DNA of 64,000 nucleotides from a bacterium (GTDB lineage: Bacteria; Patescibacteriota; Microgenomatia; Curtissbacterales; GWA2-41-24), in NCBI GenBank assembly GCA_021813945.1, contig JAKAJD010000001.1, positions 9,744 through 73,743 of the forward strand, in the 5' to 3' direction. Within the stretch, counting starts at the first letter, position 1; every line of letters starts with the position of its first letter. The position numbers were made by a program, and so were the translations under genes. The notes under the pieces were generated by a model. It made no database searches, was not told the origin of the DNA, and worked only from the letters and a program-made list of their open reading frames with translations. Positions 9,960-61,556 of this stretch are shown piece after piece.

Positions 9960-9981
9960 TAATTGATTATATCATTTAACT

Positions 9982-10009: not shown

Positions 10010-10015
10010 TAGGAA

Positions 10016-10477: not shown

Positions 10478-10481
10478 TCTT

Positions 10482-10511: not shown

Positions 10512-10521
10512 ATCTATAACT

Positions 10522-10547: not shown

Positions 10548-10549
10548 AA

Positions 10550-10984: not shown

Positions 10985-11028
10985 CCTTGTCTGGTTGTCA
11001 CGACCTACGATATAATTACCTAGTCTAA

Positions 11029-11781: not shown

Positions 11782-11785
11782 TCGC

Positions 11786-33389: not shown

Positions 33390-35051
33390 ATGTTTAAGAG
33401 AATAAAACAGAACAATATTCGCATAATCTTTGTTGCTCTTATTTGCTTGACGTTATTTTTACGTCTCTATCAATTGGGAAATATACCTAATGGCTTTGCA
33501 AACGACGAAGGTGCTGTAGCATACCAATCGTATTCAATCTTAAAGACCGGAAAAGACACATGGGGGAAAAGTTTCCCAACTACATCTTTTAGAGATTTTG
33601 GAGAATATTTGCCACCGTTTGCGGTATATGCAATTGTGCCATTTATTAAATTAATCGGATTAACCGTATTTGCAACTAGATTACCTTTTGCTCTTACTGC
33701 AGTAATTGCAATTTTTCCAATTTACGCTTTGTCAAAGGAACTGTTTAATAACAAAAAAATCGCACTTCTTTCGTGTTTTCTGTTTGCTATTTCCCCCTTT
33801 AACATAGGGTGGTCACGGTTTATTTTCGAAGGCAATTTTGGAATGTTATTTTACTTGCTGGGAATTACTTTCCTTGTTTTTGCCAAAAAGAAATCCCATT
33901 TTCTACCTTTTTCTGCTCTATTTTTCGGCTTAACATTTACAACATATCACATATATTATTTTCTCACGCCCTTAACTGCTGCAATTTTAGCTATTCCCTT
34001 AATTTCAAAATTCGCTAAATCAAAAAGAGACACCCTTATTACAATCATAATATCTATAGTCTTTGTCGCTTACGCTCTAGCCATAGTTGCAAGCGGTTCT
34101 GGCAGGGAGCGCTTCAGGCAGGTCTCCATTTTTCAAAATCAAAATTCTTTAATAAATCTAAATTCAAGGCAATCTTATTGTGGAAAAAGTACACCACAAA
34201 TTATTTGCAGAATATTTTTCAACAAAGCAGAAACCTACCTTTTTGATTACAGCTATAATTATTTTTCGCATTTTTCACCCACCTTTTTATCTCTCGATGG
34301 AACCTTTTTACGCCAAGCAATATTGCCTAAGCACGGGTTAATTTATCCGTTTGAATTGCCATTTTTATTTATTGCAGCCTTTTTCCTCATAAAAAATTTT
34401 ACGTATCAATCTTACGTACTGGTGGGATTATTATTAATTTACCCCTTAGCAAACAGCTTTACAGGTGTGGGTGAGATATCCCGAATATCTCAAATCATGC
34501 CAATATTTCCGATTCTAAGTTCCTATGGAATATTCACAACGATCCAAAAGCTAAGACCCATTTTTAGGGGAATGCTGTCGATTTTCTTAGTTAGTTTTGC
34601 CGTATTTAACATAGTTTCGTTTTTATTGAATTACTTTTTAATTTTTCCCAGAACTAACGGTTACTTCGATTCGGATGCTTATGTCAAATTATTTAAAAAA
34701 ATAAGCGTAGACAAAACTAAATATAAAAATTTTTACATTACAAGAGATTACGAGGGCAACAGCCCAGAATATCAAGCCAGGATATTTCTGCCAATACCAC
34801 CAAACACTTTTCAAGATTCAACTCGCAATGAATTCGAAGTTAAAAAACCTCAAAATTATATTGACTACAAAAGATTAGACAACTATTATTTCTTCAGTAA
34901 CATGCAAGACATCAGCCCCAATCCCGGCGATCTAGTTGTTATAAATTACAATCAAGCTAGTGTGGCAAAAAAAATCGATTTCACTATATATGAAGATAGT
35001 GGTAATCCAGCCCTAATTGGAGTATCAGGCGAAAATTTAACTAATAAGTGA
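33390..35051 (+). CDS. ArnT/PMT-like GT-C glycosyltransferase (COG1807 / GT39-83-like)
   Basis: GFANDEGAVAYQSYSILKTGKDTWGK...ISPFNIGWSR matches the DE-loop signature shared with the six tandem paralogs at 50821-60488. Confidence 0.7.
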   Translation: MFKRIKQNNIRIIFVALICLTLFLRLYQLGNIPNGFANDEGAVAYQSYSILKTGKDTWGKSFPTTSFRDFGEYLPPFAVYAIVPFIKLIGLTVFATRLPFALTAVIAIFPIYALSKELFNNKKIALLSCFLFAISPFNIGWSRFIFEGNFGMLFYLLGITFLVFAKKKSHFLPFSALFFGLTFTTYHIYYFLTPLTAAILAIPLISKFAKSKRDTLITIIISIVFVAYALAIVASGSGRERFRQVSIFQNQNSLINLNSRQSYCGKSTPQIICRIFFNKAETYLFDYSYNYFSHFSPTFLSLDGTFLRQAILPKHGLIYPFELPFLFIAAFFLIKNFTYQSYVLVGLLLIYPLANSFTGVGEISRISQIMPIFPILSSYGIFTTIQKLRPIFRGMLSIFLVSFAVFNIVSFLLNYFLIFPRTNGYFDSDAYVKLFKKISVDKTKYKNFYITRDYEGNSPEYQARIFLPIPPNTFQDSTRNEFEVKKPQNYIDYKRLDNYYFFSNMQDISPNPGDLVVINYNQASVAKKIDFTIYEDSGNPALIGVSGENLTNK

Positions 35052-39832: not shown

Positions 39833-41278
39833 GTGAAACTTAGCAAAGTTTTAAAATCCTACTGGCCATTTTTTCTTATTTTATTAATCTCTGCAATTTT
39901 GAGATTTTGGCGCCTAGAACAACTAACGACTTTTGGAGGAGATCAGGGATATGATTTTTTGATAGCCAAGGGAATACTCCAAGGAAAATTTACACTACTC
40001 GGCCCAAAAATTGGCCCATACAACAATTTTGGCAACCTGTATCTAGGTCCAGCCTACTATTATTTAATAGCGCCATGGCTCTTTCTATTTCAACTTGATC
40101 CGATAGGTCCTGCCTTTTTCACAGTTATGACTGCACTTGCTACGATATCTCTTATTTTTATTATTGCAAACCAATTTTTATCAAAAAGGATTGCAATACT
40201 CGCATCGGCAATATATGGGCTTAACGCTATACTGATTGAACAATCACGGGCATCATCAAATCCTCACTTAATACCTTTTTTCGCTGCCGTTAGTGTCTAT
40301 TCTTATTTGAAAACATCACAAGATAAATCAAAATCCATCTTATGGCCCCTCTTGGCGGGTTTTTCTGTAGGTATTGCATTTCAACTTCACTATTTAGCTA
40401 TTTCACTATTGATTGTGATTTTAATTTTCAATCTTCTAAATTCAAAATACAAAGCCATCATATTAGTATTCATCGGCCTTATGTTAGCCTTGGGCGGGCA
40501 AATATTATTTGAGTTCAGGCATAATTTTTTTGTAACAAATCTGTTCCTAATTCAGATGCATCAGGGAAAAGTTCTCTCGCTGGCAACAGTTTTAAAAAAC
40601 ATTAATTCATCAGCCAGATTGCTTACCAGTGCTTTTATTTTTTCCCCAATATTAATTTTTATATTGTTTAATAAAAATCTACTCAAAAAACAATTAATCA
40701 CTTTTTTATTAACTTCAACAATTCTTGGATTTTTCCTTGTTGTTATTTATCCTGGGAACCCGCAACCTCACTATTTTGCTCCAATCTATGTCAGCGTAAT
40801 ATTGCTAATATCGACGATTTTTTCATCTTTTCTTGATCCGAAACAAAATTTCTTTATAAAATTTGCTGTTATGGTAATTTTGACCATTTATTTTTTGATT
40901 AATATCTCAAGTTACCATTTGCTCAGAAAAAACGGCTATACAATGCCTGATGGATGGAACTTAACCGGAATTAAATTTGCCTCAAAAGCCATTGCAAATG
41001 ATGTTGACAACGAAAGAACCTTTAATGTTGCAGCTACCCTAGACGGCGATACGAGGGCTATGCCCTACAGATATATGTTATCAGTTTACGGAAAAACTCC
41101 CCTGGGCGTAGAAAAATATCCTCAAGCACAAGTTATCTATCTCGTCTCAAGAGATTCATTGGATGAAATAAAAAATTATTCTGTATGGGAAATCGCCAGT
41201 TTTTGGCCTTATAATATTAGCAAGATTGCAGATGTTCAAAATGGTATTAGGGTTTACAAATTAACAAAAACAAATTGA
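39833..41278 (+). CDS. Polytopic GT-C-type membrane glycosyltransferase, paralog of 18719..20227
   Basis: GTG start 6 nt after TATAAT (39821-39826). FGGDQGYDFLIAKGILQGKFTLLGPKIGPYNNFGNLYLGPAYYY. Confidence 0.6.
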   Translation: MKLSKVLKSYWPFFLILLISAILRFWRLEQLTTFGGDQGYDFLIAKGILQGKFTLLGPKIGPYNNFGNLYLGPAYYYLIAPWLFLFQLDPIGPAFFTVMTALATISLIFIIANQFLSKRIAILASAIYGLNAILIEQSRASSNPHLIPFFAAVSVYSYLKTSQDKSKSILWPLLAGFSVGIAFQLHYLAISLLIVILIFNLLNSKYKAIILVFIGLMLALGGQILFEFRHNFFVTNLFLIQMHQGKVLSLATVLKNINSSARLLTSAFIFSPILIFILFNKNLLKKQLITFLLTSTILGFFLVVIYPGNPQPHYFAPIYVSVILLISTIFSSFLDPKQNFFIKFAVMVILTIYFLINISSYHLLRKNGYTMPDGWNLTGIKFASKAIANDVDNERTFNVAATLDGDTRAMPYRYMLSVYGKTPLGVEKYPQAQVIYLVSRDSLDEIKNYSVWEIASFWPYNISKIADVQNGIRVYKLTKTN

Positions 41279-47202: not shown

Positions 47203-47959
47203 TAATATTCTTTGGAATCCCAAAAAAAAGCCAAAAATTATCGTGGTCATGCCAGCTTACAATGCGGAGAAAACTGTCAAAGCCACATACAATGACTTGC
47301 CAAAAGATTTAATAGAAGAAGTGATTCTTGTAGACGACGCATCGAAAGATAAAACCATTGAAAAAGCTCAAAAACTTGGGATAACAGTATATGCCCATGA
47401 TAAAAATCGAGGTTATGGAGGAAACCAAAAGACATGCTACGATCAAGCACTAAAAAGGAAGCCCGATGTCATTATCATGGTTCATCCTGACTATCAATAC
47501 GATGCAAAATTAGCTGGGGTACTTTGCGAACCCATTGTTAATGGCCGTGCTGACATCATGCTTGGTTCTAGAATCCAAACAAGAGATCAAGTTCTTGCCG
47601 GTGGGATGCCTTTATATAAATATTTTTCAAATCGCTTTTTAACTCTAGTGGAGAATCTTGCAATGGGCCTCAATCTTTCGGAGTATCATACAGGTTTCAG
47701 AGCTTTTAGTGCCGAAACACTCAAAAAAATACCTTATCATCAATTTTCCGACGATTTCATCTTCGATCAACAAATATTAGTGTCTGCACTTGCCTCTGGC
47801 AGCAATATCTCTGAAACCCCTGTTCCTTGCAAGTATTTCCCTGAAGCTTCTTCAATAAATTTTCAAAGGTCTACAAAATATGGACTCTTTACACTCTGGA
47901 CCGTATTCTTGTACATTTTAAATCAGTTGAAACTATACAAAGCCTCAATTTTTAATTAA
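47192..47959 (+). CDS. GT2 glycosyltransferase, Dpm1-like polyprenyl-phosphate sugar synthase
   Basis: IIVVMPAYNAEKTV, LVDDASKDKT, MVHPDYQYD, LGSRIQ. Confidence 0.75.
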   Translation: MTNSNILWNPKKKPKIIVVMPAYNAEKTVKATYNDLPKDLIEEVILVDDASKDKTIEKAQKLGITVYAHDKNRGYGGNQKTCYDQALKRKPDVIIMVHPDYQYDAKLAGVLCEPIVNGRADIMLGSRIQTRDQVLAGGMPLYKYFSNRFLTLVENLAMGLNLSEYHTGFRAFSAETLKKIPYHQFSDDFIFDQQILVSALASGSNISETPVPCKYFPEASSINFQRSTKYGLFTLWTVFLYILNQLKLYKASIFN

Positions 47960-48948: not shown

Positions 48949-48999
48949 ACCGCTAATACTACCCTTCGACAAGTAAATTTTCCAGAAAGCTATGTTAAA

Positions 49000-50076
49000 A
49001 TGGCAATTGTGAAAAGCCAACTAGTCAAGCTCCCAGGTCTTGTCGATGTCCATGTTCATCTACGCGAACCTGGTGGCACACAAAAAGAGGATTTCGCATC
49101 TGGGACCAAAGCGGCAATCGCTGGAGGGTACACTCAAATTCTAGATATGCCAAACAACACTCCGCCCACAATTGATCTAAAATCCTTAAAAAACAAAATT
49201 GACCTCGCAAAAGGCCGAATTTATTCCGACCTGGGTTTTAATTTTGGTGGCAACGCTCAGTCAATAGAATATTTTCCAAAAATATACAAAAAAGCATTTG
49301 GTTTAAAAGTTTATATGAACCAAACGACTGGAACCTTATTAGTCGACAAGAATGAAGAGAGAGAAATGATCTTTAAATACTGGAAGAGCGATCTGCCAAT
49401 AATGGTTCATGCTGAAGGCGAAACTGTTGAAATCGCAATAAAACTCGCAAGAAAGTTTAAGAAAAGGCTTCACGTTTGCCACATTACCCCCGATCAATTA
49501 TCCTCAATATCGAAAGCTAGAAAAGCCGGATTAAAAATAAGTTGTGAAGTTTGTCCACACCATCTGTTTTTAAATCAAAAAGACGAAAAAAAACTTGGCC
49601 CATTAGGTATTATGAAACCTCATTTACTAACTGAGATTGAACAAAAAAAGCTTTGGCAAGATCTCGACAAAGTGGATATGATCTCAACTGATCATGCTCC
49701 ACATACTCTTGAAGAAAAATATGATCAGACCGCCCCTAAATTTGGAGTACCCGGCCTTGAAACAACAGTACCATTATTTTTTGAAGCCATAAGCAAAGGT
49801 AAAATTACTCTTAAAAGATTCATTGAAATGACTTCCAAAAATCCCAAAACAATATTTAAACTTCCCAAACAACCTCAAACGCATGTCATAATCGAAACTA
49901 CCGAACCATTCAAAATATCTTCACTCAATCTATTTACTAAATGCAACTGGACACCATTTAAAAATCTTTACGGCGCAGGAAAAATTAAAAAAGTTGTATT
50001 AAGAGGTAAAACTGTCTTTAAAGACGGCCAATTCATCGACAAACCTCAAGGAAAAGTTATTACCCCAAATGTATAA
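49000..50076 (+). CDS. pyrC: Dihydroorotase-like cyclic amidohydrolase
   Basis: LVDVHVHLREPGG, KVYMN and DHAPH are metal-ligand motifs of class I DHOase. Length 358 aa. Confidence 0.7.
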   Translation: MAIVKSQLVKLPGLVDVHVHLREPGGTQKEDFASGTKAAIAGGYTQILDMPNNTPPTIDLKSLKNKIDLAKGRIYSDLGFNFGGNAQSIEYFPKIYKKAFGLKVYMNQTTGTLLVDKNEEREMIFKYWKSDLPIMVHAEGETVEIAIKLARKFKKRLHVCHITPDQLSSISKARKAGLKISCEVCPHHLFLNQKDEKKLGPLGIMKPHLLTEIEQKKLWQDLDKVDMISTDHAPHTLEEKYDQTAPKFGVPGLETTVPLFFEAISKGKITLKRFIEMTSKNPKTIFKLPKQPQTHVIIETTEPFKISSLNLFTKCNWTPFKNLYGAGKIKKVVLRGKTVFKDGQFIDKPQGKVITPNV

Positions 50077-50743
50077 TCAGGACTATTATTCAAACAAACC
50101 TAAAGTTAAATTATTTTTTGACATCGAAACTATTCCAGCTGAAGAGAAATTTAGAGATTTAGTAATAAATTTGGGTCTTCAAAAAGAAAATAAAAAAAAC
50201 AAAACAAAAATCAAAAGATTATCAAAATCTAAAAAACAGTCTCTTTATGAACAAAGCGCTATCTCAGGTGATTTTGGCAGAATTCTTTGCATCGGTTACG
50301 CAATAGAGAACGGTTCACTATCAGTAATTACCGGTCCCGAAGCGGACATTCTTAAAACTTGGTGGACAGTTGCCGATAAGGCCGATCTTTTTATAGGCCA
50401 CAACATCATGGATTTTGATCTTAGGTTTATTTTCAAAAGATCAATTGTTCACCATATTAAACCTTGTGCTAGGCATTTAAATTTGTCATTTGCCCGGTAT
50501 AAAAATTTTCCCATCTACGATACTATGCGTGAATGGGAAAAATGGAACCCTGAAAGCTTCATTAAACTTGACACTCTAGCAAAGGTTTTAAATCTCGAAT
50601 CGTCTAAATCAGACGGTATAGATGGCTCCCAAGTTTTTGAGTTCTATAAAAAGGGAAAACTTGATGCAATTTACGAATATTGCAAAAAGGACGTTAAGCT
50701 TACGCGCGAAGTCTATGAGCGCATGTCATTTACCACCTCTTAA
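50069..50743 (+). CDS. Predicted DEDDy 3'-5' exonuclease related to the PolB exonuclease domain (COG3298-like)
   Basis: Exo I FDIETIP, Exo II HNIMDFDLRF, Exo III YCKKDVKLTREVY. Confidence 0.6.
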   Translation: MYNQDYYSNKPKVKLFFDIETIPAEEKFRDLVINLGLQKENKKNKTKIKRLSKSKKQSLYEQSAISGDFGRILCIGYAIENGSLSVITGPEADILKTWWTVADKADLFIGHNIMDFDLRFIFKRSIVHHIKPCARHLNLSFARYKNFPIYDTMREWEKWNPESFIKLDTLAKVLNLESSKSDGIDGSQVFEFYKKGKLDAIYEYCKKDVKLTREVYERMSFTTS

Positions 50744-50820: not shown

Positions 50821-52446
50821 ATGCAAAGGCACAAAATCTTACTAATTGTTATTCTAATTCTTGCGGCATTCCTGCGTTTTTATCACCTCGGCCAAAACCC
50901 TCCTAGCCTAGATTGGGATGAAACCGCCGAAGGCTATAATGCTTATTCTATTCTCAAGACTGGCATGGATGAGTACGGAAAAAAGTTCCCTTTATCTTTT
51001 CGCTCTTTCGACGATTATAAACCACCTCTTTACACCTATATGACCGTTCCGTCGGTTGGTTTATTTGGCCTAAACGATTTCGCAGTGCGTTTTCCGTCGG
51101 CGCTTCTTGGCACATTTGCGATATTAACAACCTATTTAATGGTTTTGGAGCTTTTCGGCAATCGAAAAATTGCCCTGTTTTCTGCTTTATTTTTAACAAT
51201 TTCCCCCTGGCATCTTCAGTTTTCGCGCGTTGGATTTGAAACCAATAGCACCATTTTTTGGGCAACACTTGGAACATGGGCTTTTTTAAAGGGGATAAAC
51301 GCAAGTGGTAAAAAAATCGCGTTGTGGTTATCCCTAGCGTCCACCGCCTTTGGTCTTAATCTTTTTATGTACCATAATTCACGTGTTTTTATCCCGCTTT
51401 TTTCTGTGGTTCTAATATTCCTTTTTAAAGGCAAACTCCTTAATATAAAAAAATACCTCATTGTACCCGCAATTATCGCTGTAATTTTTTCATCATTACT
51501 TATTCCAATTATTTTTTCTATCCAGGGACAACTACGATATGAAGGTACAACAGTCTTTTCAGATCTCTCGCCACTTTATAAAGCATCCGCCAAAATTGAA
51601 GTTGACAGGCAAGATGGAATGCTTGCAATTGGGAAAATATTGCACAATAGGCGCTTAGTTTATGCGCCAATCATTTTAAACAATTACCTATCCCACTTAA
51701 ATCCGACATTTTTGTTTTTCACTGCAGACATGAACAGGCACCACGCACCCGGAATAGGCCTGCTATACCTTTGGGATTTGCCATTTATTCTGGCAGGAAT
51801 TTATTTTCTCATTAAAAATAAGTTTGACACGAAATCAAAAGTGATAATTTTTTCCTGGTTTTTTCTTGCTCCGGTTGCTGCATCTGTTACCTGGGGCGTG
51901 CCTCACTCGTTGCGCTCAGAAATGTACATTCCAACTTATCAAATTTTTGCAGCCATAGGTATATATACTCTTTATTCATATATAAAACCCAAAAAAGTTT
52001 TTGCGATCTTTGCCAGCCTAGCCCTTTTTATAAACTTCGCCTACTATCTCCACCAATATTATGTCCACATGCCAGTTGAATTTTCCCAAGACTGGTTATA
52101 TGGGAGAAAAGAAGCAGCGCTTACATCAAATCAACTTAAAGATAACTACAGTCGTGTTATTGTCTCGACTAAACTTGAGCAGCCGCATGAGTTCTGGCTT
52201 TATTACCTGAAATACGATCCCAAAAAATATTTAAGTGAAGGTGGAACAGTTTCAGGTGGATTTTTGGAAGACAGGAATCATTTTGACAAGTTTTACTTCA
52301 AACCTATTAATTTTGCCAAGCAATCTCAAGAAGAAAAAACTTTATTTGTTGGAACACAATCCGAATTTCCCGAAAACTCTAAAGTTATTAAGAAAATAAA
52401 TTATCTAAATGGGCAGCCAGCAATATATATAGTTTCGGGAGTATAA
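50821..52446 (+). CDS. ArnT/PMT-like GT-C glycosyltransferase (tandem paralog 1 of 6)
   Basis: LDWDETAEGYNAYSILKTGMDEYGKKFPL...ISPWHLQFSR. Confidence 0.7.
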   Translation: MQRHKILLIVILILAAFLRFYHLGQNPPSLDWDETAEGYNAYSILKTGMDEYGKKFPLSFRSFDDYKPPLYTYMTVPSVGLFGLNDFAVRFPSALLGTFAILTTYLMVLELFGNRKIALFSALFLTISPWHLQFSRVGFETNSTIFWATLGTWAFLKGINASGKKIALWLSLASTAFGLNLFMYHNSRVFIPLFSVVLIFLFKGKLLNIKKYLIVPAIIAVIFSSLLIPIIFSIQGQLRYEGTTVFSDLSPLYKASAKIEVDRQDGMLAIGKILHNRRLVYAPIILNNYLSHLNPTFLFFTADMNRHHAPGIGLLYLWDLPFILAGIYFLIKNKFDTKSKVIIFSWFFLAPVAASVTWGVPHSLRSEMYIPTYQIFAAIGIYTLYSYIKPKKVFAIFASLALFINFAYYLHQYYVHMPVEFSQDWLYGRKEAALTSNQLKDNYSRVIVSTKLEQPHEFWLYYLKYDPKKYLSEGGTVSGGFLEDRNHFDKFYFKPINFAKQSQEEKTLFVGTQSEFPENSKVIKKINYLNGQPAIYIVSGV

Positions 52447-52449
52447 CAA

Positions 52450-54084
52450 ATGAATCAGTACAAAAACTTACTTAATTCAAAATTACTCATAATTTTAATA
52501 GTTATTCTAGCTTTTGTATTAAGAACATACAAACTTTCAAATGTTCCGCCATCGCTCTATTGGGACGAAGCTTCTCTGGGTTACAATGCATATTCCATTC
52601 TTAAAACAGCACACGACGAGCATGGTAAATTCCTACCATTAACAAATTTTGGTGCATACGGCGATTACAAACCACCGCTTTATATTTATGCAACCGTCCC
52701 ATCGATTTTTATCTTTGGTTTGACGGAATTCGCAATACGCTTCCCGTCTGCGCTTTTTGGAACACTAACCATTTTACTTACGTATTTTCTTGCAAAGAAA
52801 TTTTTCGAAAATGAGGCAATCGCACTTTTATCTGCATTGTTCTTGGCGATTTCCCCCTGGCATCTGCAGTTTTCAAGAGGTGCCTTTGAAGCAAATTTAG
52901 GACTCTTTTTATCCGTTTTAGGAGTTTTGACATTTATTAAATTTGCGAAGGATAGACCACTATATATTTTTATGTCAGCAGGTTCTTTTCTAGCCGCCAT
53001 GTATACGTTTACTGGTCAAAGATTATTTGCCCCATTTATTCTAGTAGTGCTTTGTTTTCAGTTCAGAAAAGAATTAATCAAAAATTGGAAATACGTCCTA
53101 GTCGCAGCCTTTCTTTCGGCAATATTGTTTTGGCCACTTTTTAGGTTCGTTACAGGAACAATTGAAGGGAAACTTCGCTTTAACGAGGTTACTATATTTA
53201 AAGATTTAAAGCCGATCAACGATTCAATAAGATTTAAAAACGAAGATAATTTCTCCTGGTGGTCGGGGATAACGCATAACCGCCGTCTTTTTTACATAAA
53301 TCAATATTTGATCCATTATTTCGATGCCTTTAATCCTACATTTTTATTTTTTCAGGGAGACGTTAATCCACGCCTTTCGATCCAGGCGATAGGAGAGCTT
53401 TACTTTTTTGACTTATTTTTGATTCTGGCAGGAATATATTTTCTTTTCAATAAAAAACAAAAATTTCGCTTTTTGATTATGGGTTGGTTATTAATATCTC
53501 CCCTCGGCCCAGCAACTGCCAGGGAAACACCGCATGCCTTAAGGATGATCCATATTCTGCCTACCTTTCAGCTAGTGGCAGCATATGGCACTTACCAAAT
53601 ATATCAACTTATTAAATTCAAAAAAATGTTTGTTATAGGTTCAATAGTAATAATTTTAGCCAGCTTCTTTTACTACTTACACATGTATTATGTACATTAT
53701 CCGCGAGAAAATTCCGGAGAGTGGCAGTATGGTTATAAGCAAGCCGTTGAATACCTTAGCCCCTTATATAATAATGTAGATCATGTGGTTGTCACAGAAG
53801 CTTATGGCAGGCCTTATATATACTTTCTAATTTATATGAAAATCGACCCCAAAAATTATTACCAACATGCAAGTGTTTCAAGAGACGACCAATTTTTTTA
53901 TCACGTCAACTCGTTTGACAAGCTAATATTTTCAAATTCACCGACAAGTTACGCTCTTCCCGGTAAAACAATTTTTGTTACGACACCAGGGAACTTACCG
54001 ACAAATACTAAACTTCTCGAGACAGTTAGCCAGCTGGATCAAAAACCGGTGTTTGATATAGGAGAAACTGTGAATGAAAAATAA
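52450..54084 (+). CDS. ArnT/PMT-like GT-C glycosyltransferase (tandem paralog 2 of 6)
   Basis: LYWDEASLGYNAYSILKTAHDEHGKFLPL...ISPWHLQFSR. Confidence 0.7.
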   Translation: MNQYKNLLNSKLLIILIVILAFVLRTYKLSNVPPSLYWDEASLGYNAYSILKTAHDEHGKFLPLTNFGAYGDYKPPLYIYATVPSIFIFGLTEFAIRFPSALFGTLTILLTYFLAKKFFENEAIALLSALFLAISPWHLQFSRGAFEANLGLFLSVLGVLTFIKFAKDRPLYIFMSAGSFLAAMYTFTGQRLFAPFILVVLCFQFRKELIKNWKYVLVAAFLSAILFWPLFRFVTGTIEGKLRFNEVTIFKDLKPINDSIRFKNEDNFSWWSGITHNRRLFYINQYLIHYFDAFNPTFLFFQGDVNPRLSIQAIGELYFFDLFLILAGIYFLFNKKQKFRFLIMGWLLISPLGPATARETPHALRMIHILPTFQLVAAYGTYQIYQLIKFKKMFVIGSIVIILASFFYYLHMYYVHYPRENSGEWQYGYKQAVEYLSPLYNNVDHVVVTEAYGRPYIYFLIYMKIDPKNYYQHASVSRDDQFFYHVNSFDKLIFSNSPTSYALPGKTIFVTTPGNLPTNTKLLETVSQLDQKPVFDIGETVNEK

Positions 54085-55567
54085 ACCAGTATTCGTCTGG
54101 GTAATTCTGTCGTTTGCCTATTTTGCCACACGCCTTATTAACCTCAAAATCCTTCCAATTTTTACAGATGAAGCAATCTATTCATTTTGGGCCCAAGTAG
54201 CGCTTCATGATCCTGCAAATCGTTTTATATCCTTAGAAGATGGTAAGCAGCCGCTATTTATATGGATTGCGGCGACGTTTCAAAAATTCATATCTGACCC
54301 GCTTATTGCCACAAGGCTGGTTTCAGTTTTTGCTGGGTTTGGGTCGCTAATAGGCATTTATCTTGTTTCAAATCTGCTATTTAATAATAAAAAAATTGCC
54401 TGGACAGCATGCTTCCTCTATATAATTTTTCCTTTCACTCTCCTTTACGATAGAATGGGCATTTTTGACTCTCTTTTAACAATGATTGGAATTTGGGCAG
54501 TATTTTTCTCAGTCAAAATGGCCAAAGATCCAAAATTAGATTTAGCAATGTTGAATGGGATTACAATAGGGCTTGGACTTATCACAAAATCATCAGCCGA
54601 ATTTTACCTATACTTGCTTCCATTTTCGCTAATATTTTTTAATTTTTCAAAAAAAGATCGCAGCAATAGATTTTACCATTGGTTGGGCTGGTCGGCTATC
54701 ACCTTTCTTATTGCTGAAGTTATCTATAATTCCCTTCGGCTATCACAATTTTTCTACATAATTGGAAGAAAAAATATGGAATTTATAAGATCCGTTTCAG
54801 AAGTAATTAAAAATCCTCTTGAGTTTTCAGTATCCAATTTCCACGCTCTAACGCAATGGGTATATACCTATATGGGCGCCGTTTTCTTTTTTGTCTTTCT
54901 GGCAGGTTTAATTTACGGTCTATACAAAAGAAAACATCAAATCATCTATCTTGCAGTACTAATTTTTGCGCCCTTTTCTGCAGAGGTCATTTTCAACAAA
55001 GTCTTATATGCAAGATTTGCCTTGTTTTACTTTCCATACGTAATCATTATCTTGTCGTTTACAATTGTTACTCTTTTTGAACTCTTCTCTAAATATAAGA
55101 AGGTAATCATCGCAATAGTAATTTTGGGCCTCATTGTGCCCTTATCCACGTCTTTTTTTCTTTTGACTAACCCGCCGAAAGCCAACATTGCTGACAACGA
55201 CAAAAATCAATACATTAATGATTGGCCGGCTGGGTATGGAGTATCAGAAATTATCAATATTCTAAAACAGGAATCATCAAAAGGAGATGTTTACGTTGGG
55301 ACAGAAGGAACTTTTGGTCTTTATCCTTATAGTCTTCAAGTCTATTTTTATAGTAATCCCAATGTTCACATATACGGTTATTGGCCAGTAGATGCAAACA
55401 GTCTTCCAAAACAGATAATTGATTTCTCAAAAGATTATAAAACATATTTTATCTATAACTTTACTCAAGCTTCTATAGCCGATAAGCATACCCATTTAGT
55501 TGCTAAATATCAAAAAGGTAGTGGTAACAGCTATATGAGACTATTCCAAGTGGAATATGACCGCTAA
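54074..55567 (+). CDS. ArnT-like GT-C glycosyltransferase, divergent subfamily (tandem paralog 3 of 6)
   Basis: IFTDEAIYSFWAQ...GKQPLFIW is the classic ArnT-type first loop; it lacks the YNAYSILKTG signature of its neighbours. It overlaps the upstream gene by 11 nt. Confidence 0.65.
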   Translation: MKNKPVFVWVILSFAYFATRLINLKILPIFTDEAIYSFWAQVALHDPANRFISLEDGKQPLFIWIAATFQKFISDPLIATRLVSVFAGFGSLIGIYLVSNLLFNNKKIAWTACFLYIIFPFTLLYDRMGIFDSLLTMIGIWAVFFSVKMAKDPKLDLAMLNGITIGLGLITKSSAEFYLYLLPFSLIFFNFSKKDRSNRFYHWLGWSAITFLIAEVIYNSLRLSQFFYIIGRKNMEFIRSVSEVIKNPLEFSVSNFHALTQWVYTYMGAVFFFVFLAGLIYGLYKRKHQIIYLAVLIFAPFSAEVIFNKVLYARFALFYFPYVIIILSFTIVTLFELFSKYKKVIIAIVILGLIVPLSTSFFLLTNPPKANIADNDKNQYINDWPAGYGVSEIINILKQESSKGDVYVGTEGTFGLYPYSLQVYFYSNPNVHIYGYWPVDANSLPKQIIDFSKDYKTYFIYNFTQASIADKHTHLVAKYQKGSGNSYMRLFQVEYDR

Positions 55568-57224
55568 ACTATCATCAATTTATATTTTCATCTTCATAAT
55601 TGTCCTTGCCGCCTCCCTCAGGTTAATCAACTTGGGTTCAATTCCCAATGGATTCAGCGACGACGAGGCAGCATTTGGATACAATGCATACTCTATTTTA
55701 AAAACCGGTCGAGACGAATGGGGTAAATTATTACCCCTCACCAATTTCCAAAGCTTCGGTGACTACAAGCTACCTGTGTATTTTTATCTAACTTCTGTTT
55801 CAATTTCATTTTTTGGACTGTCGGAATTTGCAGTCAGATTTCCAACAGCATTTTTTGGGATCCTTTCTATTATTCTGACTTACTTCCTAATCAAAAGATT
55901 ATTTGATGAAAAAACAGCCCTTTTAGCATCGTTTCTGCTCACAATTTCTCCCTTTCATATATTCGTTTCGCGCCACGCTTTAGAATCCGCTGTCCCAATT
56001 TTTTTCAACCTTGCGGCGGTATTATTTTTTTTGAAATCATTTAAACGGAAAAAGTTAATTTATATTTCGGCCATTTTTTTTGCTATCAATCTTTATATAT
56101 ATCGTTCAACCTGGATTTTTGTACCAGTATACTTTGGGGCCCTACTGTTTTTATTTAAAGAAGAAATTTCAAAAAATCTAAGAAATACGATCTACGCTCT
56201 GCTAATCTTCGCAGCCCTTGCAACACCAATTGCTATTACTGCTGTATCCCCGAGTGGAACTTCAAGAGTGAGACAAATTGGCATAACATCTCAATTTAAC
56301 ATGATAGGTCTGGTTAATGATGTCAACAGCAACAAGCAAATATGCATTCAAAAGCTGCCGATATTGGTTTGCCAAATCACATACAACAAATACTCAGCCT
56401 TGTTGAAGAAATACGTATCAAACTATATTAGCCATTATTCTCCTCAATTACTCTTTATTTCCGGATCTCCGGATGGTGAACAAATGTTAAAAGGAAGAGG
56501 ATTTTTATATTTTTTTGAGCTACCTTTTATAGTAATTGGGATCATTTATCTTGGAAAAAATCGAAAGAGTTTCCAGTCAAAAATAATTTTACCTTGGCTT
56601 CTCATCTACCCATTGGCTTCAGCTAGTACCGGCTTTGAAACACCCGGAAGACAAGCAATTATGATGCCTGTATGGGAAATAATAACGGCTGCCGGCTTTT
56701 TTAGTTTAGTTTTTTACCTTGAGCAAAGAAAAAATCTTATATTTAAAAAAATTCTTATAGTTTTTTTTGCGTTAATTGTCGCGTTCGAATTTGGTGGATT
56801 TTTCGTGGATTATTTCTACATCTACCCGAAAATTTCTGGTCCCTATTTTAGATACGGTTACAGAGAGCTTTTTTCATATCTTAAAAACCAACAAAATGAT
56901 TACGATAGAATTCTAATTTCAAACAAGCTAGACGCTTCACATCAATACATCTTTTTGCTTTTTTACTCCAAGATAAGCCCCAAAGATTATCAGAATCCGT
57001 CTTATTTCGATAGGCATATCAACGATCATGGATGGGTAGAGGTTACGAGAATGGGAAAATATTACTTTTATGCCTCAAAACCCGGTCTGAATGGACAACC
57101 CCAAAAAACTCTAGTCGTAGTTGGAAAGGGCGAGGTTCAATCTGGCCCTAAACCAATTTACACAATAGATTTTCCAGACGGCCACAAAGCGTTTGAGGTA
57201 TATCAGCTTGAAAAAATTATATGA
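55557..57224 (+). CDS. ArnT/PMT-like GT-C glycosyltransferase (tandem paralog 4 of 6)
   Basis: GFSDDEAAFGYNAYSILKTGRDEWGKLLPL...ISPFHIFVSR. Confidence 0.7.
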   Translation: MTAKLSSIYIFIFIIVLAASLRLINLGSIPNGFSDDEAAFGYNAYSILKTGRDEWGKLLPLTNFQSFGDYKLPVYFYLTSVSISFFGLSEFAVRFPTAFFGILSIILTYFLIKRLFDEKTALLASFLLTISPFHIFVSRHALESAVPIFFNLAAVLFFLKSFKRKKLIYISAIFFAINLYIYRSTWIFVPVYFGALLFLFKEEISKNLRNTIYALLIFAALATPIAITAVSPSGTSRVRQIGITSQFNMIGLVNDVNSNKQICIQKLPILVCQITYNKYSALLKKYVSNYISHYSPQLLFISGSPDGEQMLKGRGFLYFFELPFIVIGIIYLGKNRKSFQSKIILPWLLIYPLASASTGFETPGRQAIMMPVWEIITAAGFFSLVFYLEQRKNLIFKKILIVFFALIVAFEFGGFFVDYFYIYPKISGPYFRYGYRELFSYLKNQQNDYDRILISNKLDASHQYIFLLFYSKISPKDYQNPSYFDRHINDHGWVEVTRMGKYYFYASKPGLNGQPQKTLVVVGKGEVQSGPKPIYTIDFPDGHKAFEVYQLEKII

Positions 57225-58918
57225 AAAGATATTTATTTACTGGCAATTTAAATATATTCAAAAATCTAATAAAGAGAAACATGTTTTTAATTTTGATAAT
57301 CATTTTAGCTTGTGTATTACGTTTTTACATGTTAACAACGATTCCAATTGGTTTCGGTGATGATGAAGCAGCATTCGGATATAATGCTTACTCTTTGCTT
57401 AAAACTGGTCATGATGAATGGGGAAAATATTTTCCATTCCCTGTTTTTGAAAGTTTTGGAGATTGGAAACTTGCGCTTTACCTATATTTGGTGGCTATTA
57501 GTCAATTCTTCCTGGGTGTTACTGTTTTTGCGACCCGATTTCCTTCTGCGGCAATCGGGGTTCTCGCAGTCGTGGCAACCTATTTACTTACAAAAGAATT
57601 ATTCGATAAAAAAATTGCTCTGGTTGCCTCGTTGTTAATCACGATATCTCCATGGCACATCGCGGCTTCGAGAAACGCTTATGAATCTGATTTATTAATT
57701 TTTACAATAACTCTTGGTACCTATTTTTTTCTAAAAGGCCTGAAGAAAAAGTATTATATTACGTTGAGTTTCTTAATATTCGGATTGTCGTTTTATTTGT
57801 ATCGATCAGCCTGGACTTTCATCCCTATTTTCATTCTTTTTTTAGTATTTTTATACTGGGATAGCTTCAAAAATTTAAGGTTATTTTTGGCAAAAAATAT
57901 TTTCTTTTTTTTAATTCTTCTATTGCCTCTTATACCAACACTTATAACCTTTCGAGGCCAATCAAGATTTTTTCAAGAGAGTTTTATGTCAGGGATTCAA
58001 AACATAGGAATATCGAACGATGTGAATGAGAGAAGAGGGGATTGTGCACAATTCTTTGGAAATCTGTTCTGCAAACTTACCTATAACAAATATAATTTTT
58101 ATTTATCAAAATATATCGACAACTATATTGCTAATATTTCCCCGCAAACTTACTATCAGAACATTAACCCAACCGGATATCAATCATTTACTCCCAGGGG
58201 CTACTTCTACACATTTGAATTCCTTCTTGCTATACCAGGCTTAATTTACCTTATTAATATTAAGAAAAACTCTACAAAGATTTTATTTGTTTGGATTGTA
58301 GCTGTCCTCCTTGCACCATCATTAACAAGCGTGGGAAATCCAGGCAGACTCAATATAATTATGCCTGTACCTCAAATAATCGCTGCAATTGGTTTAATAT
58401 ATTTGATTCAAATGATTAAAAATAATAAGCTGCGTTTACCATTTATCATACTAGCAACTACGGTGGTAACTTTATCCTTTATTAGATTTGTTGCTGACAC
58501 AATGAGCTACTATCCAAAATATGCTGCAATGTATCAAAGATATGGCTACGGAGAACTTTTTAAATACGTTGAAAGTCAGAAATCAAATTATTCTCAAATT
58601 ATCGTATCGAGAAAGTCAGATGACGCAAAGCAATACATTCATTATTTGTTTTTTACTAAATACGACCCTTCTAATTATCAAAAAAATGCATTTTTTTCTA
58701 GAGATAAATTAGGGTTTAGATCTGTCGATCAAATAGATAACATAAAATTTTCCTCATCCGTACCGCCTTTAAACACTATTCCTATAGGAACTATGATAGT
58801 AAGCGGAAATAACGAGTTATCGAGTAAAGATCTACGCCCCCTTAAAACGATAGTGGACCCCAAAGGCGATGTACTATTTAATGTTTATGAACTAACTGCG
58901 CACGCATATGAAGAATAA
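57221..58918 (+). CDS. ArnT/PMT-like GT-C glycosyltransferase (tandem paralog 5 of 6)
   Basis: GFGDDEAAFGYNAYSLLKTGHDEWGKYFPF...ISPWHIAASR. Confidence 0.7.
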   Translation: MKRYLFTGNLNIFKNLIKRNMFLILIIILACVLRFYMLTTIPIGFGDDEAAFGYNAYSLLKTGHDEWGKYFPFPVFESFGDWKLALYLYLVAISQFFLGVTVFATRFPSAAIGVLAVVATYLLTKELFDKKIALVASLLITISPWHIAASRNAYESDLLIFTITLGTYFFLKGLKKKYYITLSFLIFGLSFYLYRSAWTFIPIFILFLVFLYWDSFKNLRLFLAKNIFFFLILLLPLIPTLITFRGQSRFFQESFMSGIQNIGISNDVNERRGDCAQFFGNLFCKLTYNKYNFYLSKYIDNYIANISPQTYYQNINPTGYQSFTPRGYFYTFEFLLAIPGLIYLINIKKNSTKILFVWIVAVLLAPSLTSVGNPGRLNIIMPVPQIIAAIGLIYLIQMIKNNKLRLPFIILATTVVTLSFIRFVADTMSYYPKYAAMYQRYGYGELFKYVESQKSNYSQIIVSRKSDDAKQYIHYLFFTKYDPSNYQKNAFFSRDKLGFRSVDQIDNIKFSSSVPPLNTIPIGTMIVSGNNELSSKDLRPLKTIVDPKGDVLFNVYELTAHAYEE

Positions 58919-60488
58919 AATATTCATTTTAATAATCTTAATATCGCTAGCTTTGAGATTTTATAAATTGGGAGTTATTCCAGCTGGCTTGGATTGGGAC
59001 GAGGTAAGTAACGCTTACAATGCTTATTCGATTCTAAAAACAGCACGTGATGAATTCGGCACATTCTTACCTTTGACAAACAGATCATTCGACGATTATA
59101 AACCGCCTCTTTATATGTATCTAAATGTTCCAACAGTTGCTATTTTTGGCCTTACGCCGTTTGCCGCAAGATTGCCCTCCGCCCTTTTAGGTACTCTATC
59201 AACCATTTTCATCTATTTTTTGGTAAAACGCCTATTCAAAAAAGAAGCACTTGCTCTCATATCAATGGCACTTGCAGCAACTTCGCCATGGCAGCTGCAA
59301 TTTTCCAGAGTCGGTTTTGAAGCAAATTTAGGTTTGTTTATGGCAATATCATCATTTACACTTCTTCTTTATGCGTTGCCCATGTTGAAGGAAAAATTTT
59401 CATCTCGAAAAGCCACTGTCTTTCTACTATCTGCATTCTCATTTGGATTAAGCTTTTACAGTTACCATTCAGAGCGTATCTTTATACCATTATTATTTCT
59501 CGTATCCCTTATAATTTACCGGCAAGATTTTTTAAAGATACCCAAGAAACTTTGGGTGATTTTTATCGCCATTACAATATTTCTGGTACTTCCTTTTTTC
59601 ATTTTTACTCCATTTAAAGCAATATCACAAAGGCTTGACGAAACAAGCCAATCGACAACAATTCAAAACATCGACCAATCGATTGTTTTTATGAAGGAAG
59701 ATAACTATTCCTATCTTTCTAAAATTATCCATAACAGGAGATTATTAATTGCAACCAATTATGCAAAGAATTATTTAGCTAACTTTGATGTGAACTATTT
59801 ATTTATCAAGGGCGACAACAACCTTCGTCATCATATTGAAAATATGGGCATGCTTTACCTTATAGAGTTGCCTTTACTTATATATGGTCTCTACTTTTTT
59901 ATTAAAGAAAGATCCAAAAGTACAATTTTTATTCTAGCTTGGCTCATCCTATCACCTATTCCAGCAGCACCAGGCAACGTAGCGCCCCACGCAATCAGAA
60001 GTTTTACCATGATTATTTCGCTAGAAATTGTAATTAGTTTTGCAATATTAAAAATTTATGAGCAGATTAAGTGGAAAAAAGCATACATGGGATTACTCCT
60101 TTCAGCTTATTTTTTGACATTTATCGTCTACTTGCATAATTATTACGTTCACTATTGGCACGATAATGCCTCCTGGTGGCAGCATGGATATCTTCAAGCA
60201 GTTTCAAAGACTAAAGTAGTCAAAAACAACTACAATCGGATAATAGTCGATCCATCAATTGAGCAAGCATACATTTTCTGGTTATTTGGCACCAAATACG
60301 ACCCAAAAAGTTATCAGATAAATGGAAATAAGGAACATTTTGATAAATATTACTTCACACCTGTCCAGCCTGAAAATTCAAAAGACTTATTTGTAACAGC
60401 AAAAAGCTTGCCCCAAGAGTTTGACATAATTGACACAATAAATTTTCCAAATGGCGAGAAAAACATATCAATAGGTCATCCAAAATAA
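58908..60488 (+). CDS. ArnT/PMT-like GT-C glycosyltransferase (tandem paralog 6 of 6)
   Basis: LDWDEVSNAYNAYSILKTARDEFGTFLPL...TSPWQLQFSR. Confidence 0.7.
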   Translation: MKNKIFILIILISLALRFYKLGVIPAGLDWDEVSNAYNAYSILKTARDEFGTFLPLTNRSFDDYKPPLYMYLNVPTVAIFGLTPFAARLPSALLGTLSTIFIYFLVKRLFKKEALALISMALAATSPWQLQFSRVGFEANLGLFMAISSFTLLLYALPMLKEKFSSRKATVFLLSAFSFGLSFYSYHSERIFIPLLFLVSLIIYRQDFLKIPKKLWVIFIAITIFLVLPFFIFTPFKAISQRLDETSQSTTIQNIDQSIVFMKEDNYSYLSKIIHNRRLLIATNYAKNYLANFDVNYLFIKGDNNLRHHIENMGMLYLIELPLLIYGLYFFIKERSKSTIFILAWLILSPIPAAPGNVAPHAIRSFTMIISLEIVISFAILKIYEQIKWKKAYMGLLLSAYFLTFIVYLHNYYVHYWHDNASWWQHGYLQAVSKTKVVKNNYNRIIVDPSIEQAYIFWLFGTKYDPKSYQINGNKEHFDKYYFTPVQPENSKDLFVTAKSLPQEFDIIDTINFPNGEKNISIGHPK

Positions 60489-61277
60489 ATGAAAAAAGAA
60501 AAAAGAATCAAACTATCCGTCGCTCTTGCAACGTATAACGAAGAAGAAAATATAGTAGATTGCCTTGAATCTGTTAAAGATGTGGGGGATGAGATTGTGG
60601 TTGTTGATGGTAATTCACAAGACAGAACAGCTGAACTGGCAAAAATTAATGGGGCAAAGGTCATTAAAACTGAAAATAAAAAAATGTTTCACATCAACAA
60701 AAATTTGGCAATTAAAACCTGTAGGGGAGAGTGGATACTACTTTTGGATGCAGACGAAAGAGTAACGCCCGACCTAGCCAAAGAGATCAAAAACATCATC
60801 CATGGTAAATCCACAAATGATGGTTACTGGGTTAATCGCAAAAATTGGTTTTTGGGTGGCTTTTTAACAAAAGGAGGAGCATATCCAGACTCGGTAATAA
60901 GGCTATTTAAAAAAGGCAAGGGCCACCTTCCCCAAATCAGCGTTCATGAACAAGTTGCAATTGAGGGCTCATTGGGCCACCTAAAAAACGATCTCCTTCA
61001 TCTGGCGGACCCAAATTTTTCGAGATATTTAACAAGGGCTAACCGCTATACTGATTTGACGGCAGAGAACCTAAAGAATAGCAAAATCGGCCAAGGACCA
61101 TTGCAAATTGTGTTTTACATGCTCATAAAACCATCCGTCACTTTTACAGACATTTATATTCGCCATGGAGGCTTCAAAGATGGATTTAGAGGTTTTGTGT
61201 GGGCTTTGTTTTCGGGAGCTCATCATTTTTATGCCTATTCAAAGTATTTAACCGAAAAATCACAAAAAAAATTATAA
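60489..61277 (+). CDS. GT2 glycosyltransferase (DADER-motif subfamily)
   Basis: LSVALATYNEEENIVDCL, VDGNSQDRT, LLDADERVTPDL. Confidence 0.7.
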   Translation: MKKEKRIKLSVALATYNEEENIVDCLESVKDVGDEIVVVDGNSQDRTAELAKINGAKVIKTENKKMFHINKNLAIKTCRGEWILLLDADERVTPDLAKEIKNIIHGKSTNDGYWVNRKNWFLGGFLTKGGAYPDSVIRLFKKGKGHLPQISVHEQVAIEGSLGHLKNDLLHLADPNFSRYLTRANRYTDLTAENLKNSKIGQGPLQIVFYMLIKPSVTFTDIYIRHGGFKDGFRGFVWALFSGAHHFYAYSKYLTEKSQKKL

Positions 61278-61360
61278 TTCGAACCTAAATTGCCTACTTG
61301 TTTAAAAGCTAAAAAATTGTTATCAAAGTAATATATACCCTTTTTCGAAAGGAGGTAGCC

Positions 61361-61390
61361 ATGGCAAAGAAAAAGAAAAAGAAAAAATAA
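61361..61390 (+). other. Mini-ORF MAKKKKKKK with the strongest Shine-Dalgarno sequence in the window; a candidate leader peptide or regulatory element
   Basis: aaaGGAGGTagccATGgcaaagaaaaagaaaaagaaaaaaTAA. The SD GGAGGT lies at 61351-61356, in a window that otherwise almost lacks SDs. Confidence 0.25.
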
Positions 61391-61401
61391 GATCTTTCTT
61401 G

Positions 61402-61457
61402 CCCACCTTAGCGGTTTTTAAAAGATTTTCTATTAAAAGCGGAAGGTGGGTTTTCTT
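61402..61457 (+). terminator. Hairpin CCCACCTT...(33-nt loop)...AAGGTGGG followed by TTTTCTT; terminator- or attenuator-like
   Basis: An 8-bp perfect inverted repeat (61402-61409 and 61443-61450) followed by a T-run, immediately after the poly-Lys mini-ORF. Confidence 0.3.
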
Positions 61458-61497
61458 ACTCGGATTCATAAATTCTCCTATTTACCCAAAACTGAGC

Positions 61498-61556
61498 TAT
61501 AATTTAGAAGAAATTACATAAGCTAAAGCGAATATAATTTAGAAGAAATTACATAA
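61498..61556 (+). repeat. Two identical 24-bp direct repeats TATAATTTAGAAGAAATTACATAA, 35 bp apart, upstream of the GT4 gene
   Basis: Copy 1 is at 61498-61521 and copy 2 at 61533-61556. Each contains TATAAT, and copy 2 ends 8 nt before the GTG start at 61565. Confidence 0.6.

Follow-up and report, generated by a model that had tools for sequence, protein, structure and literature searches.

A conserved-order array of six predicted GT-C glycosyltransferases in a putative surface-glycan island of a Curtissbacteria-like bacterium

Very small genomes and, to present knowledge, a life attached to other cells characterise the bacteria of the Candidate Phyla Radiation (CPR, or Patescibacteria), whose surface chemistry has hardly been studied. 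Tandem paralogs of GT-C glycosyltransferases (GTs) are found in mycobacteria, where embCAB together with the Aft enzymes build arabinan from decaprenyl-phosphate-arabinose. In Streptococcus mutans, two pairs of a GT-A and a GT-C enzyme are encoded in one locus (SccN/SccM and SccP/SccQ), in such a way that each pair makes its own linkage on rhamnan from undecaprenyl-phosphate-glucose (Glc-P-Und) (PMC11754754). Three-component systems of monoderm bacteria, made up of a GT-A undecaprenyl-phosphate-sugar synthase, a flippase and a GT-C enzyme, include CsbB/YfhO, GtrB/PgtC2 and PgfS/PgfM1 (10.1101/2024.05.05.592596). Glycosylation in the CPR has been called "unexplored" (PMC11623550), and we found no paper describing GT-C/PMT arrays in these bacteria, only passing remarks. 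Here we analyze such an array, six consecutive genes named A1 to A6, in a 64,000-nucleotide stretch (the window) of contig JAKAJD010000001.1, which belongs, judging by named homologs, to a Curtissbacteria-like (Microgenomates/CPR) bacterium with a genome of about 1 Mb. The proteins are enzymes of a known kind, GT-C glycosyltransferases in a surface-glycan locus, and reveal no new mechanism; their interest lies in how densely GT-C genes are packed, in the fixed order that ancient paralogs keep and in the behaviour of the slot occupied by A4 and A5.

The six genes are intact open reading frames (ORFs) on the + strand, with ATG starts, products of 497-565 aa and no internal stops, as listed in the initial annotation of the window. 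The predicted GT-C enzymes are A1 (50821..52446, 541 aa; Pfam PMT_2 46.2 and PMT 33.7 bits), A2 (52450..54084, 544 aa; PMT 49.0 and PMT_2 46.9 bits), the distant paralog A3 (54074..55567, 497 aa; above the PMT_2 gathering score, no PMT hit), A4 (55557..57224, 555 aa; PMT 36.7 bits, above the PMT_2 gathering score), A5 (57221..58918, 565 aa; PMT_2 44.4, STT3 38.3 and PMT 26.6 bits) and A6 (58908..60488, 526 aa; PMT_2 50.7 and PMT 37.3 bits). With a gap of 0 nt, A6 is followed by a gene for a GT2 glycosyltransferase of GT-A fold (60489..61277, + strand, 262 aa; Glycos_transf_2 76.6 bits). The internal junctions measure, from A1 to A6, +3, -11, -11, -4 and -11 nt, in agreement with the overlapping stop and start codons (11, 11, 4 and 11 nt) described initially. 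The three 11-nt overlaps are of one common form (ATG-A..-..T-AAA), because the upstream ORF reads into a lysine-rich "MKNK"-type start. The start of A5 is called at 57221 or at 57281 (giving 545 aa) depending on the gene caller; in its orthologs a basic N-terminus is conserved ("MKLIKKN", "MNSFIRNN") whose aligned counterpart in A5 is encoded upstream of 57281, and therefore the start at 57221, with its ATGA overlap, is favoured. Tight or overlapping junctions were also detected at the equivalent positions in the orthologous loci of relatives, and because these overlaps recur and a conserved hairpin and T-run lie 3' of the GT2 gene, A1-A6 and the abutting GT2 gene look like one translationally coupled operon, which supports the operon proposed from the sequence at the outset.

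The integrity of the array was also studied. Its 9,668 bp are 100% identical in three other independent assemblies that cover the full length, and a fourth shows a one-base difference. Including the flanks, identity was 100% over 21,626 bp in two assemblies, 100% over 13,700 bp in another and 99.99% over 11,795 bp in the remaining one; the matching contigs, one of them 975,962 bp long, come from European Nucleotide Archive (k141-named) and Logan assemblies of different samples. The array has no repeat structure at the DNA level and no sign of collapse or expansion between samples. An assembly artefact or collapsed repeat, which the initial annotation had named as a possible refutation, is thus ruled out by the identity of independent assemblies and by a DNA divergence between paralogs too large for collapse. 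Pseudogenisation with loss of the catalytic Asp-Glu (DE) pair, the other possibility raised there, is ruled out by the intact ORFs and the invariant catalytic set of each paralog, with the loop-1 DE present in every one.

Orthologous loci of six relatives (labelled L006, L008, L010, L012, L013 and L015) were compared with the window, orthology being assigned by best hits. The order A1-A2-A3-A4-A5-A6 of the window corresponds to A1-A2-A3-A4-A6 in L010, A1-A2-A3-X-A4-A6 in L006 (X, a protein of 594 aa), PTPS-like-A2-A3-A4-A6 in L008, A1-A2-A3-A5-A6 in L012 and PTPS-like-X-A2-A3-A5-A6 in L015, and in L013 (Curtissbacteria GCA_001776495.1) A1 and another paralog lie upstream of A2-A3-A5-A6. A core of A2, A3, either A4 or A5, and A6 is therefore found in the same order in the 7 genomes, A4 and A5 being together only in that of the window, and the copy number at the locus ranges from 4 to 6 among relatives. 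Orthologs share 48-87% identity, whereas paralogs share 31-42%. Both A2 (63-80%) and A6 (48-69%) have orthologs in all six comparison genomes, and A1 has them in L010, L006, L012 and L013 (64-87%), with none at the equivalent position in L008 and L015. A5 fills the slot between A3 and A6 in L012, L013 and L015, and its homologs in Curtissbacteria and Woesebacteria are 45-67% identical to it, compared with 42% for its neighbour A4. The 120 best clusters matching A3 show 53-78% identity over about 495 aa, those with names being from Curtissbacteria but for one, and by this comparison A3 is the best-conserved member of the array. The GT2 gene at 60489 has orthologs of 62-78% identity at the same position in L010, L006, L008, L012 and L013, and on gene order is the conserved last gene of the unit.

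In a neighbour-joining tree from which A3 was left out and in which distances were capped, each of the orthogroups A1, A2, A4, A5 and A6 received a bootstrap of 100%, with 99% for A4 and A5 as sisters and 93% for A1+A2+A6, and the branching within each orthogroup mirrors the relatedness of the genomes. Judged from these sequences, the array is an old, order-locked core, A2-A3-(A4 or A5)-A6, with two variable slots, and its paralogs are ancient. Because separate orthogroups with full bootstrap support stand in a conserved order across the 7 genomes, the array does not derive from recent serial duplication (the origin first proposed for it was serial duplication); the five orthogroups are separate and A5 is nearer to genes found elsewhere than to A4. 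The stable one-to-one orthology and the fixed order indicate, therefore, fixed and non-redundant roles, and the "combinatorial toolkit" of the initial annotation is not borne out, turnover being limited to two slots.

Extended runs of GT-C genes seem to be general in the Microgenomates group. On a more distant Microgenomates contig (L016, 3253-16668), eight consecutive GT-C genes of mixed families were found: MptA_B, an A3-like PMT_2 (40% identity), three PTPS_related, one YfhO and two PMT. The additional 594-aa PMT_2 paralog of L006 (8206-9990), lying between A3 and A4, is lineage-specific; it is only about 31-32% identical to any paralog of the window and clusters outside the five orthogroups, together with the gene at 33390 of the window.

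The relationship among the paralogs was analyzed by pairwise and profile comparisons. A1, A2, A4, A5 and A6 align with each other over about 470-555 aa (E 1e-47 to 5e-131), a homology far beyond chance at the sequence level. A3 matches the other paralogs by BLAST along its N-terminal 107-199 residues only (E 1e-9 to 2e-4). When it was aligned with the profile of this A family by hhalign, the probability was 98.9% (E 1e-17, 378 columns), in such a way that the DE, D..K and R positions and the "YGY/GYG" at the start of the C-terminal domain all matched up. In A3 the GYNAYS...DEWG insert of loop 1 is absent, and the loop at 231-320 is mostly missing. By these alignments A3 is a full-length distant homolog, and its assignment to a different subfamily, made when the array was first noticed, is borne out by both methods. 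The loop-1 signature then proposed is exact in A1 and A4; A2, A5 and A6 differ from it by 1-3 substitutions, and A3 is without it, as had been said. The seventh member reported at 33390 (B; 33390..35051, + strand, 553 aa; PMT_2 42.1 bits) proved to be a dispersed full-length homolog, 27-34% identical to A1, A2, A4, A5 and A6 over about 400-540 aa. It falls outside the five orthogroups in the tree and has neither of the two proposed signatures in strict form. PMT_2 genes at 18719 and 39833, as well as several other GT-C-type genes, had been missed.

As for the family identity, A1-A6 score 42.4-53.7 bits with Pfam PMT_2 (PF13231), all above its gathering cutoff of 26.1 bits, and A4 and A5 also pass STT3 weakly. 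Among the NCBIfam models, the best match for A1, A2, A4, A6 and B is TIGR03663 (Agl23-like), which covers the N-terminal ~200 aa including the DE, although the 30.9-62.4 bits obtained remain under the cutoff of 126.25. Two equivalog models were rejected: that of ArnT (NF009784, cutoff 567) gave 19.2-24.7 bits for A1, A2, A3, A4 and A6 and no hit for A5, and that of bacterial Pmt (NF058602, cutoff 800) matched only A6, with 22 bits. A regular-expression search for the WWDxG motif of oligosaccharyltransferases (OSTs) found none in the 15 GT-C candidates of the window, and no MIR family match was present among the Pfam hits of A1-A6. The subfamily is large, with 7,139 representatives at 50% identity at E <= 1e-30 and 22,003 at E <= 1e-10, the NCBI label on homologs being "glycosyltransferase family 39 protein"; no characterised member was found in it.

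Confident AlphaFold2 models were obtained for A4 (predicted local distance difference test, pLDDT, 93.1; predicted template modelling score, pTM, 0.92) and A3 (pLDDT 86.3, pTM 0.88), with the 231-320 loop of A4 helical. The structural comparison gave paired values of 24.0 / 22.8 for STT3B, 22.0 / 26.6 for ALG12, 21.9 / 23.6 for Pmt4, 21.7 / 25.1 for ArnT, 20.6 / 19.5 for Pmt2, 20.4 / 26.2 for AglB, 20.1 / 19.0 for ALG9, 19.3 / 17.9 for PglB and 18.1 / 20.5 for AftA, all at 10-15% identity and with Foldseek in agreement; fold hits include 6p2r (Pmt1-Pmt2), 7bvf (EmbA-EmbB) and, likewise from the Emb and Aft enzymes, 8if8, 9dlh and 6wbx. The multi-pass membrane fold and the conserved N-terminal module are those of the GT-C_A superfamily. 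Each of the six proteins has a DE dipeptide between residues 31 and 48, in the first extracytoplasmic loop after transmembrane segment (TM) 1; D36 and E37 do not vary in any of 24 family sequences, and the residues aligned with them in A3 are D32 and E33. These models and alignments support that A1-A6 are GT-C_A enzymes about equally far from all the characterised branches. The initial description as GT-C enzymes with a catalytic DE is thus upheld, the proteins being of PMT_2 type with the loop-1 Asp-Glu intact, and the term "ArnT/PMT-like" applied to them holds at the superfamily level only, the ArnT and Pmt equivalogs lying far below their cutoffs.

The divergence is not evenly distributed along the proteins. 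With regions given in A4 numbering and bounded by the secondary structure of its model, the identities among paralogs and among orthologs were 0.60 and 0.86 in the DE loop (24-72; ratio 0.69), 0.38 and 0.69 in TM2-8 (73-230; 0.54), 0.26 and 0.67 in the loop 231-320 (0.39), 0.29 and 0.60 in TM9-12 (321-426; 0.48) and 0.29 and 0.64 in the C-terminal domain (427-555; 0.45). A comparison of 24 sequences of the five orthogroups gave 32 strictly invariant residues, 25 of them within the first 190; D36, E37, D53, D69, K71, R94, R139, E143, R237 and R365 belong to this set. The diversification of periplasmic loops suggested at first is therefore seen in the 231-320 loop and the C-terminal domain, and also in TM9-12, but not in the DE loop, which is the most conserved region (60%). 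GT-C enzymes in general combine a conserved donor and catalytic module with a variable acceptor module, and the pattern of the A family matches this picture.

Taken together, we consider it fairly likely that A1-A6 are polyprenyl-phosphate-sugar-dependent enzymes, each of which would add one fixed linkage to a surface glycoconjugate. At the cytoplasmic face, GT2 enzymes of the surrounding island would charge polyprenyl phosphate with single sugars taken from nucleotide sugars, the lipid-linked sugars would be flipped across the membrane, and each GT-C paralog would carry out an inverting transfer to one position of a growing extracytoplasmic glycoconjugate, which might be a wall or surface polysaccharide, a glycolipid or the glycan of a glycoprotein. 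The conserved N-terminal module (TM1 to about TM8, with the DE loop) would bind the donor and hold the catalytic residues, and the divergent 231-320 loop, TM9-12 and C-terminal alpha/beta domain would set the acceptor or linkage specificity, in such a way that turnover in the slots (A1, A4/A5, lineage-specific extras) could alter the glycan between lineages. The lipid-linked donor, the outside-facing chemistry and the single linkage per paralog are inferred from the known GT-C enzymes and from precedents such as SccN/SccM and SccP/SccQ. Several results weigh against this proposal. Five of the six proteins (A1, A2, A4, A5, A6) also pass Pfam PMT (PF02366, cutoff 22.7 bits), and because of this the data fit a protein acceptor no less well than a glycan one. 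All NCBIfam equivalog matches, of GT-C and GT2 proteins alike, are far below cutoff. The excess divergence of the variable module is moderate (paralog/ortholog ratio of 0.39-0.48 vs 0.54-0.69), with bounds that come from model secondary structure and not from a membrane-embedded model. The loss of A1 in L008 and L015 and the A4/A5 alternation mean that not every step is indispensable, and scans for sigma-70 promoter and terminator patterns gave no enrichment over shuffles.

The compatibility with a protein acceptor gives room to a different role, in which A1-A6 would be protein O-glycosyltransferases, PMT-like or PgtC2/PgfM1-like, each with its own clients among the secreted or surface proteins (for instance pilins, S-layer proteins or Ser/Thr-rich disordered regions) and not steps of one glycan. 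The streptococcal GtrB/PgtC2 and PgfS/PgfM1 systems are a precedent for it, but those enzymes are of YfhO type, a family separately present in the window, the single bacterial Pmt match is far from its cutoff, the fold is no nearer to PMTs than to ALG, OST or ArnT enzymes, and the island, with its Wzx flippase, many GT4 and GT2 genes and Rml-like genes, resembles a polysaccharide locus, so that we see this role as possible but rather unlikely. A further alternative is that of true ArnT enzymes transferring 4-amino-4-deoxy-L-arabinose (L-Ara4N) to lipid A; the ArnT structure 5EZM is the sole solved structure reached by the A-family profile (E 2.4e-4, about 160 residues) and some database entries are named "Ara4N transferase-like". 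To our knowledge, the CPR generally lack lipopolysaccharide and a lipid A acceptor is not expected in them, and no arn-specific or lpx-type genes were found among the annotated ORFs of the 64-kb window; this function is extremely improbable.

The other two explanations concern how the array works as a set. Hetero-oligomeric GT-C complexes like Pmt1-Pmt2 or EmbA-EmbB, whose stoichiometry would be fixed by the gene overlaps, would be compatible with the one-linkage-per-paralog proposal; overlaps of 4 or 11 nt at four of the five internal junctions, kept in relatives, the strictly conserved gene order and the presence of both heterodimers (6p2r and 7bvf) among the structural neighbours speak for them. 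However, a fixed complex would be disturbed where A1 is lost or A4 and A5 alternate, and overlapping genes are common in compact genomes without pointing to a complex; we regard such complexes as unlikely. The idea of a rapidly diversifying, partly redundant toolkit born from recent serial duplication, close to the serial duplication and combinatorial toolkit initially envisaged, can draw on the copy number of 4-6, the 594-aa paralog of L006 and the A4/A5 alternation. Against it stand the distance between paralogs compared with that between orthologs, the five fully supported orthogroups that run parallel to genome relatedness, the absence of DNA-level repeats and the identity of the array between samples, and we regard it as very unlikely.

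The array is at the centre of a glycan island of about 55 kb, from about 8.8 kb to the window end, and this ~1-Mb genome keeps at least 15 GT-C-type genes, about 25 kb, in that one island. The 15 detected in the window total 24,975 bp, and 12 of them are above Pfam thresholds (nine PMT_2, two YfhO, one PIG-V-like). The YfhO genes and the PIG-V-like gene are at 23215-25659, 43985-46306 and 62594-63682. The three remaining were inferred: a pair of PTPS_related-like genes, 31% identical to each other (25626-27257 and 35048-36772), and a probable distant GT-C at 30255-31697 (A-family profile 83.7%, 339 columns). The window also holds nine GT2 and two GT4 genes. One GT2 is fused to a GtrA/DPMS TM domain (17488-18708, + strand; Glycos_transf_2 91.5 and GtrA_DPMS_TM 66.8 bits), with four TM-like segments in its C-terminal half; by its domains, no other gene of the window is as clear a candidate for a combined lipid-phosphate-sugar synthase and flippase. 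It is directly followed by a PMT_2 GT-C gene (18719-20227, + strand; 47.6 bits), a predicted pairing of canonical type, in which a lipid-phosphate-sugar synthase/flippase stands beside a GT-C enzyme. Another PMT_2 gene (39833..41278, + strand, 481 aa; 28.3 bits) is 27% identical to that at 18719 (BLAST E 8e-43) and matches the A-family profile at 95.9% (hhalign). Several GT2s have their best scores with PgfS, dolichyl-phosphate-hexose transferase, AglJ, ArnC and PpgS, every one of these matches to lipid-phosphate-sugar synthase equivalogs being below cutoff.

Among the genes for nucleotide sugars are two of short-chain dehydrogenase/reductase (SDR) type, one of the epimerase/dehydratase family (8838) and one of the dehydratase/epimerase family (15560). 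An RmlA/RmlB/RmlD-type set occupies 11029-14227, UDP-glucose dehydrogenases are encoded at 14259 and 28171, the gene at 16514 matches the GDP-mannose 4,6-dehydratase family strongly (437.6 bits), and an epimerase gene is found at 27236; a Wzx-type flippase is at 36721. The GC content of the housekeeping part (1-12000, with SecA and a release factor) is about 0.40-0.43 and falls to about 0.32-0.37 in the island (18000-64000), except for one 2-kb bin at 20-22 kb with 0.40. An aspartate/ornithine carbamoyltransferase gene lies inside the island at 20246-21172. Directly upstream of the array, 47956-50743 holds non-glycan genes that are syntenic across relatives, a CTP_transf_like+DUF359 fusion on the - strand, a dihydroorotase-like amidohydrolase and a PolB-exonuclease-like 3'-5' exonuclease. 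Pyrimidine-type genes are thereby present inside the glycan island. Two proteins, of 543 aa (31706-33337, - strand), with a "GDE" motif at residue 37, and of 403 aa (22014-23225), gave neither Pfam hits nor significant matches when compared with the profiles of A and A3. In L008, an unannotated minus-strand gene of 530 aa comes right after the array.

Downstream of the GT2 gene, a strong Shine-Dalgarno (SD) sequence (61347-61358, + strand) precedes a micro-ORF, MAKKKKKKK*, a 9-codon poly-lysine frame (61361-61390, + strand), and a hairpin GCCCACCTT...AAGGTGGGC followed by TTTTC (61401-61455, + strand; minimum free energy -23.8 kcal/mol for 61385-61460). The SD sequence, the micro-ORF and the hairpin with its T-run are kept in the aligned orthologous spacers of L010 and L006, and L012 has a 49-aa Lys/Ala-rich ORF at the position of the micro-ORF. 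From its sequence, 61347..61455 is probably the 3' end of the transcription unit, and the micro-ORF might encode a leader peptide or be what is left of a small basic protein. An Rfam scan of the whole window gave 0 hits. TATAAT-like boxes, shared by the orthologous spacers, appear after the hairpin and before the GT4 gene; at 61499-61556, just 5' of the GTG start of that gene (61565), a 23-bp direct repeat ATAATTTAGAAGAAATTACATAA is present twice, each copy with a TATAAT-like box, and relatives have a single copy of the TATAATTT core. In L008, L010, L012, L013 and L015, a conserved block lies about 3.5-5 kb downstream of the array, corresponding to a region beyond the window end, and comprises a PIG-V-like gene, a gene for a small membrane protein (122 aa), in most loci an epimerase gene, then a GT2 of about 229 aa, DUF2304 and a pair of GT4 genes. 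The small protein has only faint or weak matches to EamA/SMR; it and DUF2304 are candidates for flippase or anchor partners of lipid-linked sugars.

A broader reading would take the array and about nine further GT-C genes in 45 kb as an extracytoplasmic glycan assembly line of order-locked paralogs in a genome of about 1 Mb, and we advance it tentatively, as a possibility on the doubtful side. If it were true, the locus would be a bacterial counterpart of the ALG pathway of the endoplasmic reticulum (ER) lumen or of mycobacterial lipoarabinomannan/arabinan synthesis, its paralogs, perhaps as hetero-oligomers, would build a complex surface glycan, and its swappable slots (A1, A4/A5 and lineage-specific inserts) would adapt this glycan to host attachment or phage evasion in an episymbiotic CPR bacterium. 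In any case, the locus is a well-delimited target for the study of CPR surface display, where the differences in the A4/A5 and A1 slots are natural experiments relating gene content to glycan.

We compared the array with the known systems. The ArnT enzyme of Cupriavidus metallidurans (GT83; 5EZM and 5F15) differs from it in sequence (10-12% identity), and the array fails the equivalog hidden Markov model. Unlike the GT39 enzymes (yeast Pmt1, Pmt2 and Pmt4 and actinobacterial Pmt; 13-16% identity), A1-A6 have no MIR domains, and the 231-320 loop is helical in the model of A4. The ER-lumenal mannosyltransferases ALG3, ALG9 and ALG12 are 10-12% identical and, in contrast to the array, eukaryotic and not clustered in operons. 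STT3, AglB and PglB differ by the WWDxG motif, missing in the array, and by a C-terminal domain of more than 250 aa in OSTs compared with about 130 aa here. TIGR03663/Agl23-like archaeal proteins have the N-terminal ~200 aa and the DE in common with the array, although the match is sub-cutoff and mostly the N-terminal module alone aligns. The three-component systems are alike in that GT2 genes of the window, one of them GtrA-fused, adjoin GT-C genes in a wall-glycan island with Rml-like genes, whereas the streptococcal PgtC2 and PgfM1 are of YfhO type and the window has five or six tandem PMT_2-type genes and two YfhO genes. The embCAB cluster has in common with the array the tandem paralogous GT-C genes in one operon; its lipid-phosphate-sugar donors, with a distinct linkage or acceptor for each paralog, would be a likeness to the roles proposed here, and EmbA and EmbB form a heterodimer. 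Finally, the Scc locus of S. mutans resembles the array in having several GT-C paralogs in one locus, and there each paralog makes its own linkage.

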